DNA from: Spirochaetaceae bacterium
GTDB taxonomy: Bacteria > Spirochaetota > Spirochaetia > WTKD01
Reading direction: 5' to 3'
Length of the DNA: 64,000 nucleotides
Assembly: GCA_011524535.1 (NCBI GenBank)
Contig: WTKD01000013.1
Location: forward strand, 77,371 to 141,370
Part shown: positions 53,367 through 53,454 of the stretch, piece after piece
Position numbering within the stretch: position 1 is the stretch's first letter
Layout: each line of letters begins with the position of its first letter
Program-made: the position numbers and the translations under genes
Notes under the pieces: generated by a model
What the model was told of the DNA's origin: nothing
Database searches by the model: none
The model's input: only the letters and a program-made list of their open reading frames with translations

Positions 53367-53388
53367 TATCCATCTCCTCTTATACCAC

Positions 53389-53421
53389 CATTATAGACCA
53401 AGCAACATTATAGACCAAGCA
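53389..53421. repeat. Tandem 16-bp direct repeat (CATTATAGACCAAGCA x2, 1-nt spacer) flanked by TATACC hexamers, in the acnA/fusion-gene divergent promoter region
   Basis: Perfect copies at 53389-53404 and 53406-53421. TATACC at 53380-53385 and 53424-53429. Confidence 0.5.
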
Positions 53422-53454
53422 CCTATACCCATGTTACAGTTTTGTTGAGGTCCA

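Follow-up and report, generated by a model that had tools for sequence, protein, structure and literature searches.

A tandem repeat between the divergent acnA and fusion-enzyme genes of a spirochaete is probably a short duplication of core promoter DNA

The acnA/fusion locus and its tandem repeat

The stretch of DNA analyzed here (the window, 64,000 nucleotides from a Spirochaetaceae bacterium, with a GC content of about 42%) carries two divergently oriented genes separated by a spacer of 88 bp that includes both of their Shine-Dalgarno sequences. The minus strand encodes acnA (positions 50682-53366, GTG start), whose 894-aa product was identified as aconitate hydratase A by Pfam and as a TIGR01341 equivalog (scoring 1297 bits where the cutoff is 945). 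The plus strand encodes a protein of 1115 aa (53455-56802) that was found by domain assignment to be a fusion of E1alpha, E1beta, a lipoyl domain, and FabH (KAS III). By reading the sequence, we located the Shine-Dalgarno sequence GAGGAG of acnA at 53374-53379 (minus strand) and GAGG of the fusion gene at 53447-53450 (plus strand).

Within this spacer, CATTATAGACCAAGCA is present at 53389-53404 and again at 53406-53421, and the single base between the copies (A at 53405) gives a period of 17. A first-pass annotation of this DNA had described a perfect 16-bp tandem repeat at these positions, with a 1-nt spacer and a 17-bp period, and had placed it in the divergent promoter region of the two genes. 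Both the description and the location hold when the sequence is read. Tandem Repeats Finder reported the interval 53389-53421 (period 17, 1.9 copies, 100% matches, score 66) as the top-scoring among 19 arrays in the window, and its exact near-tandem run of 16 bp is longer than any in 30 dinucleotide-shuffled versions of the window, whose longest runs measured 8-12 bp.

The distance of 33 nt previously given between the repeat and the fusion ATG (53455) is likewise correct. However, the acnA ATG that had been claimed to lie 23 nt away is not the start codon. The real start is the GTG at 53366, located 22 nt from the repeat, and the ATG at 53373-53371 near this start is out of frame. The repeat was also said to be bracketed by TATACC hexamers, of which the right one is indeed at 53424-53429, but the left one is at 53381-53386 rather than at 53380-53385. 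The left hexamer overlaps the predicted transcription start site (TSS) region of acnA, and the right one lies within the spacer of the predicted fusion promoter. We considered whether these hexamers are degenerate extra copies (TTATA--CCA compared with TTATAGACCA) and assigned no function to them.

The array can be divided into two 17-bp units without strand assignment. Unit 1 (CACCATTATAGACCAAG, 53386-53402) holds the first copy of the 16-mer (53389-53404), and unit 2 (CAACATTATAGACCAAG, 53403-53419) holds most of the second (53406-53421). The units are identical at 33 of 34 positions, with a single mismatch of A at 53405 versus C at 53388. The sequence CACC, which opens unit 1 (53386-53389), recurs immediately after unit 2 (53420-53423), and this microhomology is a signature of slippage. 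Head-to-tail, near-identical copies, the flanking CACC, and the presence of a single copy in a related genome (L002) are together the features of a slippage-type duplication.

We reached the locus in other assemblies via aconitase. The two-copy sequence is identical in Logan SRR8814430 (L003) and JGI 3300033127 (L004), both of which match the window at 100% identity over 9.7-12.7 kb and represent one and the same population. These three assemblies are therefore uninformative on strain variation. Nevertheless, the identity of L003 and L004 to the window rules out an assembly artefact. An assembly or sequencing artefact has general possibility alone in its favor and is scarcely credible, given the agreement of the window, Logan, and JGI assemblies and an array of 34 bp that is far below read length.

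It had also been suggested that a genome-wide search for the 16-mer would define a regulon. No further copies were found within the 64-kb window or in 15 kb of L002. When up to three mismatches were allowed, one other site was recovered in the window, which is the level expected by chance. Sub-words of the repeat unit are not enriched in the other intergenic regions of the window, and neither copies nor near-copies of the motif occur in the intergenic DNA of the window or in the 15 kb of L002. The exact 16-mer has at least 120 single-copy matches in metagenome contigs, those listed being on unrelated contigs with no doublet among them, but this number corresponds to chance expectation and is uninformative.

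We also rejected a reading of the spacer as an RNA element. Neither strand folds better than shuffled sequences (z = -0.4 and +1.3), and there is no match to Rfam, which at gathering thresholds reported no RNA family anywhere in the 64-kb window.

Several observations concern the fusion enzyme and other loci in the window. The FabH domain, whose Cys/His/Asn motifs (AACSG, PHQAN, and GNTS) are intact, is situated where the E2 acyltransferase core would sit, and the lipoyl domain likewise retains an intact lysine motif (EADKA). The fusion architecture recurs in more than 1700 homologues, and nearly all of the named ones are from Spirochaetes. A search of genome contigs with the fusion protein gave an unrelated Bacteroidales FabH as its sole match, and a full-text literature search for an E1-lipoyl-FabH fusion found no describing paper. 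One idea is that the acyl group might be passed straight from dihydrolipoyl to the FabH cysteine, priming branched-chain fatty acids without CoA. Elsewhere, a riboflavin cluster lies within 711-3654 on the minus strand (ribD 2416-3546, ribBA 1181-2434, ribH 711-1184), and no FMN riboswitch was detected by the Rfam gathering threshold despite the 108-nt spacer upstream of this cluster. The longest msrB (SelR) open reading frame (57047-57838, minus strand, 263 aa) overlaps the upstream hisI-like (PRA-CH) open reading frame (57693-58139, minus strand). Because the JGI annotation of the identical sequence gives msrB 223 aa, its start is probably internal. The apparent non-coding gaps at 25364-26347 and 27449-28184 proved to be artefacts of the open reading frame filter.

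Predicted promoters and their conservation in related genomes

A strict sigma-70 scan of positions 53100-53700 returned no promoter, as a result of weak -35 matches (3/6 and 4/6). A looser scan, for which the criteria were set after the data had been seen and to which shuffle controls were added, found exactly two arrangements in the spacer, one on each strand. On the plus strand, TAGACC (53411-53416) is followed after 18 bp by TG-t-TACAGT (53432-53440). On the minus strand, TTGGTC (53418-53413) is followed after 17 bp by TATAAT (53395-53390). The two would constitute a divergent sigma-70-type pair, in which both genes have upstream a -10 box with A2 and T6 and a -35-like hexamer 16-18 bp farther upstream.

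The hexamers coincide with the repeat in large part. Read on the minus strand, the unit is TGCTTGGTCTATAATG, which contains a perfect TATAAT in copy 1 (53395-53390) and in copy 2 (53412-53407). On the plus strand, TAGACC overlaps each TATAAT by 2 bp (53394-53399 and 53411-53416). The proximal TATAAT in copy 1 (53390-53395, minus strand) is the predicted -10 box of acnA, 23 nt before the GTG and with a predicted TSS at about 53383. The distal TATAAT in copy 2 (53407-53412, minus strand) might serve as a second acnA promoter, P2, with a predicted TSS at about 53400. This distal box lacks a -35 hexamer (AACATG, 1/6) and keeps the overlap with the fusion -35 that is seen in L002. The -35-like TTGGTC (53413-53418, minus strand; 3/6, comprising the TTG part) lies exactly 17 bp upstream of the proximal TATAAT. 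Because TTGGTC is derived from copy 2 and this TATAAT from copy 1, this -35/-10 pair is owed solely to the duplication. For the fusion gene, the predicted -35 is TAGACC of copy 2 (53411-53416, plus strand, 4/6), located 18 bp upstream of TACAGT. The extended -10 TGtTACAGT (53432-53440, plus strand) is outside the repeat and 14 nt before the ATG. Its predicted TSS at about 53447 is the first base of the fusion Shine-Dalgarno sequence.

We infer that these hexamers are the promoters actually used. Boxes of the form TA(T/C)A(A/G)T are enriched fourfold on the sense strand upstream of genes in the window, and this genome therefore evidently makes use of -10 boxes of the sigma-70 type. A study of Leptospira cautions that the E. 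coli consensus is a poor predictor of spirochaete promoters and places most Leptospira TSSs 0-10 nt from the start codon (PMC5243855). The short leaders predicted here fit this spirochaete precedent. The fusion mRNA is predicted to begin at or beside the Shine-Dalgarno sequence, with a leader of about 8-10 nt that would be both conserved and unusually short. In six genomes, the extended -10 of the fusion gene ends 14-17 nt before the start codon (window 53432-53457; L002 5976-6003; L127 3975-4003; L128 3476-3503; L129 3418-3446; L131 466-494).

The locus was compared among nine genomes of spirochaete type: the window, L002, L125, L127, L128, L129, L130, L131, and L132. The gene order serS-neuB-acnA(-)/fusion(+)-msrB is kept in L002, where the locus resides on a 1.79-Mb contig and the fusion protein is 68% identical, and in L125, L127, L128, L129, and L130, where identity is 53-55%. 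Within this order, acnA and the fusion gene stay divergently paired down to about 53% protein identity. L131, a short contig, also retains the divergent pair, whereas in L132 neuB is followed directly by the fusion gene without acnA between them, such that the pairing is found in eight of the nine genomes examined.

Before promoters were compared, we corrected three evidently mis-called start codons on the basis of N-terminal alignments and Shine-Dalgarno positions. The public call for L002 acnA (5925-5937) is probably four codons too long. The fusion gene of L125 (4001-4043) probably starts at the second ATG, after AAGGAG. In L129 (3354-3429 and 3444-3501), the acnA call of 929 aa is probably too long and the fusion call too short.

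A fusion promoter of the form TnGACn, 17-18 bp, TG-n-TAnnnT was found in all nine genomes. Outside the window, the elements are TCGACT...TGCTATAGT in L127, L128, and L129, GTGACT...TGCTATAGT in L130, TCGACT...TGaTATAGT in L131, TAGACA...TGaTAGAAT in L125, TAGACT...TGcTACAGT in L002, and TCGACT-17-TGgTATCAT in L132. The extended -10 promoter on the fusion side was present in all seven genomes that were compared with shuffles, against 0-3% of dinucleotide shuffles per genome, although by criteria chosen post hoc, and L131 and L132 also carry it. Because L132 keeps TnGACn without an adjacent acnA, this element is part of the fusion-gene promoter. On the acnA side, the promoter scan found a TATAAT, TATTAT, or TATATT box upstream of the gene in each genome scanned. 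In six of seven genomes, a -10 box that agrees with TATAAT at five or six of its six positions is found 16-26 nt away from the acnA start (2-10% expected by chance in each). L131 has one at 19 nt, which brings the total to seven of the eight genomes in which acnA neighbors the fusion gene. Note that if the distance constraint is dropped, the acnA-side criterion is satisfied by 5-76% of shuffles.

In an alignment of the distant relatives, the conserved islands fall exactly at the promoter elements. The window and L002 have no similarity detectable by BLASTN at the DNA level, yet L002 retains CATTATAGAC-TAGCAA and ATGcTACAGT, and this retention of promoter elements indicates constraint. Conservation between the window and L002 extends to 15 of the 17 unit positions, including AGCAA outside the hexamers. 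The shared TATAAT/TAGAC junction, AGCAA, and ATG-n-TACAGT mark the compact junction as a constrained feature of the lineage comprising the window and L002.

L002 has one full unit (CATTATAGAC-TAGCAA) plus an 8-bp partial copy at 13 bp, such that ATAGACTA occurs twice, 13 bp apart. L125 has a weak repeat, ATAGAC/ATAGAA, 10 bp apart. No repeat was found in the orthologous regions of L127-L132, and it is thus absent from six of the nine genomes. The comparison of orthologous intergenic regions that had been put forward as a check on the repeat consequently reveals that the two-copy architecture is not kept (one unit in L002, none in L127-L132).

A separate observation concerns a conserved 14-bp near-palindrome, GGTGGTCGACTACC, that holds the overlapping -35 hexamers in four genomes (L127 3950-3963; L128 3452-3465; L129 3393-3406; L131 441-454). 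It could be an operator for a dimeric regulator common to acnA and the fusion gene or the mere product of opposed -35 boxes.

Origin of the repeat and competing explanations

The gap between the two -10 boxes is 39 bp in the window, 41 bp in L127, L129, and L131, 40 bp in L128, 37 bp in L130, and 21 bp in L002. In L125 the promoters are well separated (about 86 bp), and the 37-41-bp layout is thus not universal. In L127-L131, the two -35 hexamers overlap on opposite strands, and the window exhibits the same overlap as these distant relatives (53411-53416 on the plus strand versus 53418-53413 on the minus strand). The 21-bp gap of L002 causes the -35 of each promoter to fall on the -10 of the opposite promoter. 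In the window, the 22 bp between the copy 2 TATAAT and TACAGT reproduce this L002 arrangement. The predicted divergent TSSs are about 64 bp apart in the window and 46 bp apart in L002.

On this evidence, the repeat probably arose when slippage duplicated 17 bp of compact divergent sigma-70-type core promoters in a single lineage. On the most economical account, the divergent promoters would first have been compacted in the common ancestor of the window and L002 lineages. Replication slippage of 17 bp between two CACC microhomologies would then have occurred in the window lineage, followed by one substitution. The copies are identical at 33 of 34 positions, also outside the hexamers, and the duplication must therefore have followed long after the divergence from L002. 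Copy 1 would supply the acnA -10 at its ancestral distance from the acnA start, and copy 2 would supply the fusion -35 at its ancestral distance from the fusion -10, while TTGGTC, on the reverse strand of copy 2, would act as an upstream -35 with a spacing of exactly 17 bp to the proximal acnA TATAAT. An interpenetrating state like that of L002 would leave room for one RNA polymerase only. By moving the -10 boxes to 39 bp apart, the duplication would have produced the back-to-back layout of five distant relatives (37-41 bp). The acnA gene would possibly have two tandem promoters (TSSs at about 53383 and 53400), and the fusion gene would have one (about 53447).

We hold any functional consequence of the duplication with less confidence than the identity of the repeat as a duplicated core promoter. 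Competition for RNA polymerase at overlapping divergent promoters has been demonstrated experimentally in E. coli (PMC12825309), and such promoters compete once either is strong (PMC12825309; bioRxiv 10.1101/2020.01.31.928960). Shifting the acnA -10 by 17 bp off the fusion -35, together with the gain of a TTG -35 at optimal spacing, would be expected to give stronger acnA transcription and less mutual exclusion. From the layout of these elements, we infer that the proximal acnA promoter was strengthened and that polymerase competition was relieved by the duplication. An adaptive version of these events is conceivable but is offered tentatively. In the common ancestor of the window organism and L002, a small-genome lineage, the promoters may have collapsed into a mutually exclusive state, to be re-expanded to the ancestral geometry by one slippage in the window lineage. 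Such a compensatory micro-duplication would have given acnA its own -10/-35 and would have freed the genes for a TCA-cycle enzyme and a fatty-acid-priming enzyme from contending for RNA polymerase. Note that a spacing of 16-18 bp is expected by chance in about 15% of duplications with periods of 10-30 bp, and therefore the neat spacing is no proof of selection.

The duplication might instead be a neutral slippage scar, in which promoter DNA was copied with no meaningful effect on expression and kept by drift. The acnA gene would fire from either TATAAT and the fusion gene from an unchanged promoter. The CACC flanks and the one substitution are as expected of a recent spontaneous event, only one population has been sampled, and the fusion promoter with the copy 2 TATAAT reproduces the L002 layout, such that nothing was necessarily lost or gained. 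However, almost all of the 88 bp between the genes fall within a Shine-Dalgarno sequence, a -10, or a -35, and a 17-bp insert there is unlikely to be neutral for expression. This insert placed a second perfect TATAAT 17 bp nearer acnA with a TTG -35 at optimal spacing, and it restored the 37-41-bp geometry of five relatives. We therefore consider neutrality unlikely.

Another explanation treats the two 16-mers as an operator array, bound in tandem by a transcription factor that covers both core promoters and so controls acnA together with the fusion gene. The first-pass annotation had named an OmpR/PhoB-type or other winged-helix regulator, and a different direct-repeat binder would be an alternative. 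Direct repeats of perfect identity within a divergent promoter form a classic operator layout, and binders of this kind are known to act at promoters of the TCA cycle, as ArcA does at icdA (PMC4173790). The agreement of the window and L002 at 15 of the 17 positions in the unit and the occurrence of the near-palindrome at a homologous position in L127, L128, L129, and L131 also speak for a bound protein, and AGCAA beyond the hexamers and this near-palindrome are the best arguments for a transcription-factor site over a core promoter. The paired ATAGACTA of L002 and the ATAGAC/ATAGAA of L125 can be counted on the same side, but their spacings differ (17, 13, and 10 bp in the window, L002, and L125), and with the repeat missing from most of the genomes, no fixed site architecture is conserved. 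The period is a further obstacle. ArcA sites are 11 or 22 bp apart center to center, and one extra base pair abolishes binding (PMC4173790), while PhoP recognizes 7-bp repeats separated by 4 bp (PMC4832192). A 17-bp period, by comparison with the 11 or 22 bp required by OmpR/PhoB-type dimers, would leave neighboring sites pointing to almost opposite sides of the helix and is thus atypical of this family. No response regulator or other recognizable DNA-binding factor is encoded among the approximately 50 genes of the window, the motif has no more copies in its intergenic DNA or in 15 kb of L002, and the near identity of the copies at unconstrained positions suggests a recent duplication rather than two ancient sites. 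An operator array is accordingly improbable.

What survives of the earlier proposal is its broader part. The repeat is regulatory DNA in the sense that its unit falls on core promoter hexamers that are conserved for the two genes, but the operator mechanism is not upheld. Coupled expression of acnA and the fusion gene is plausible, given their divergent pairing in eight of nine genomes, but such coupling would stem from promoter geometry and not from an operator array.

Additional readings were also considered. A phase-variable promoter repeat is at odds with a 17-bp unit in two copies, as opposed to the many copies of 1-7 bp characteristic of such repeats, and the three assemblies, which sample one population, are identical. 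A symmetric shared -10 fits CATTATA formally (CATTAT on the plus strand, TATAAT on the minus strand), but the conserved fusion -10 is the separate TGnTAYAGT. A Fur/PerR box (with TATAAT likened to GATAAT) and a CcpC-type dyad were dropped for want of dyad symmetry and of other support.

Relation to known promoter arrangements

If the promoter interpretation is true, the locus provides a clean natural example in which one small slippage rewires two overlapping divergent promoters, with the one-copy (L002) and two-copy (window) states both at hand for direct comparison. A regulon hypothesis that is tempting but lacks support is also taken away. The locus would add little to general knowledge, since repeat-altered promoter geometry and divergent polymerase competition are both established. 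Of greater biological interest nearby is the conserved pairing between acnA and the E1-lipoyl-FabH fusion enzyme. A literature search for promoter-creating tandem duplications found nothing directly relevant.

Divergent sigma-70 promoters were reportedly classified as back-to-back or overlapping by Beck and Warren in 1988. The window resembles such pairs in having two predicted core promoters within one polymerase footprint, such that one direction can exclude the other. In symmetric bidirectional promoters, the opposite -10 elements are offset by 1 bp, share an A2/T6 pair, and have TSSs 18 bp apart (Warman et al., bioRxiv 10.1101/2020.01.31.928960). The predicted TSSs here are instead about 64 bp apart (46 bp in L002), and the fusion -10 of the window is separate, 39 bp off, such that -35 DNA rather than -10 DNA is shared.

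The operators of the OmpR/PhoB family (ArcA at icdA, PhoP, and the Pho boxes of PhoB) offer a likeness in their direct repeats and in the involvement of a TCA-cycle promoter. However, sites in those operators lie 11 bp (or 22 bp) apart center to center, and conservation extends over orthologous promoters and whole regulons, whereas the repeat described here has a 17-bp period, is confined to a single lineage, and is the only one of its sequence in the window.

The closest precedent comes from the hifA/hifB region of Haemophilus influenzae, where a variable TA repeat lies in a combined divergent promoter (van Ham et al. 1993, as reviewed in PMC3899988). The two loci are alike in placing a repeat within overlapping divergent promoters, and at hifA/hifB the copy number alters the -10/-35 spacing and hence affects both genes at once. 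That repeat is a many-copy, highly mutable dinucleotide responsible for phase variation, whereas here there are two copies of 17 bp, and in place of the spacer tuning described there the window duplicates whole hexamers, with no evidence of copy-number switching. On the promoter reading, the repeat joins known kinds of element, namely promoter-geometry repeats and back-to-back or overlapping divergent promoters, and is not a new kind.
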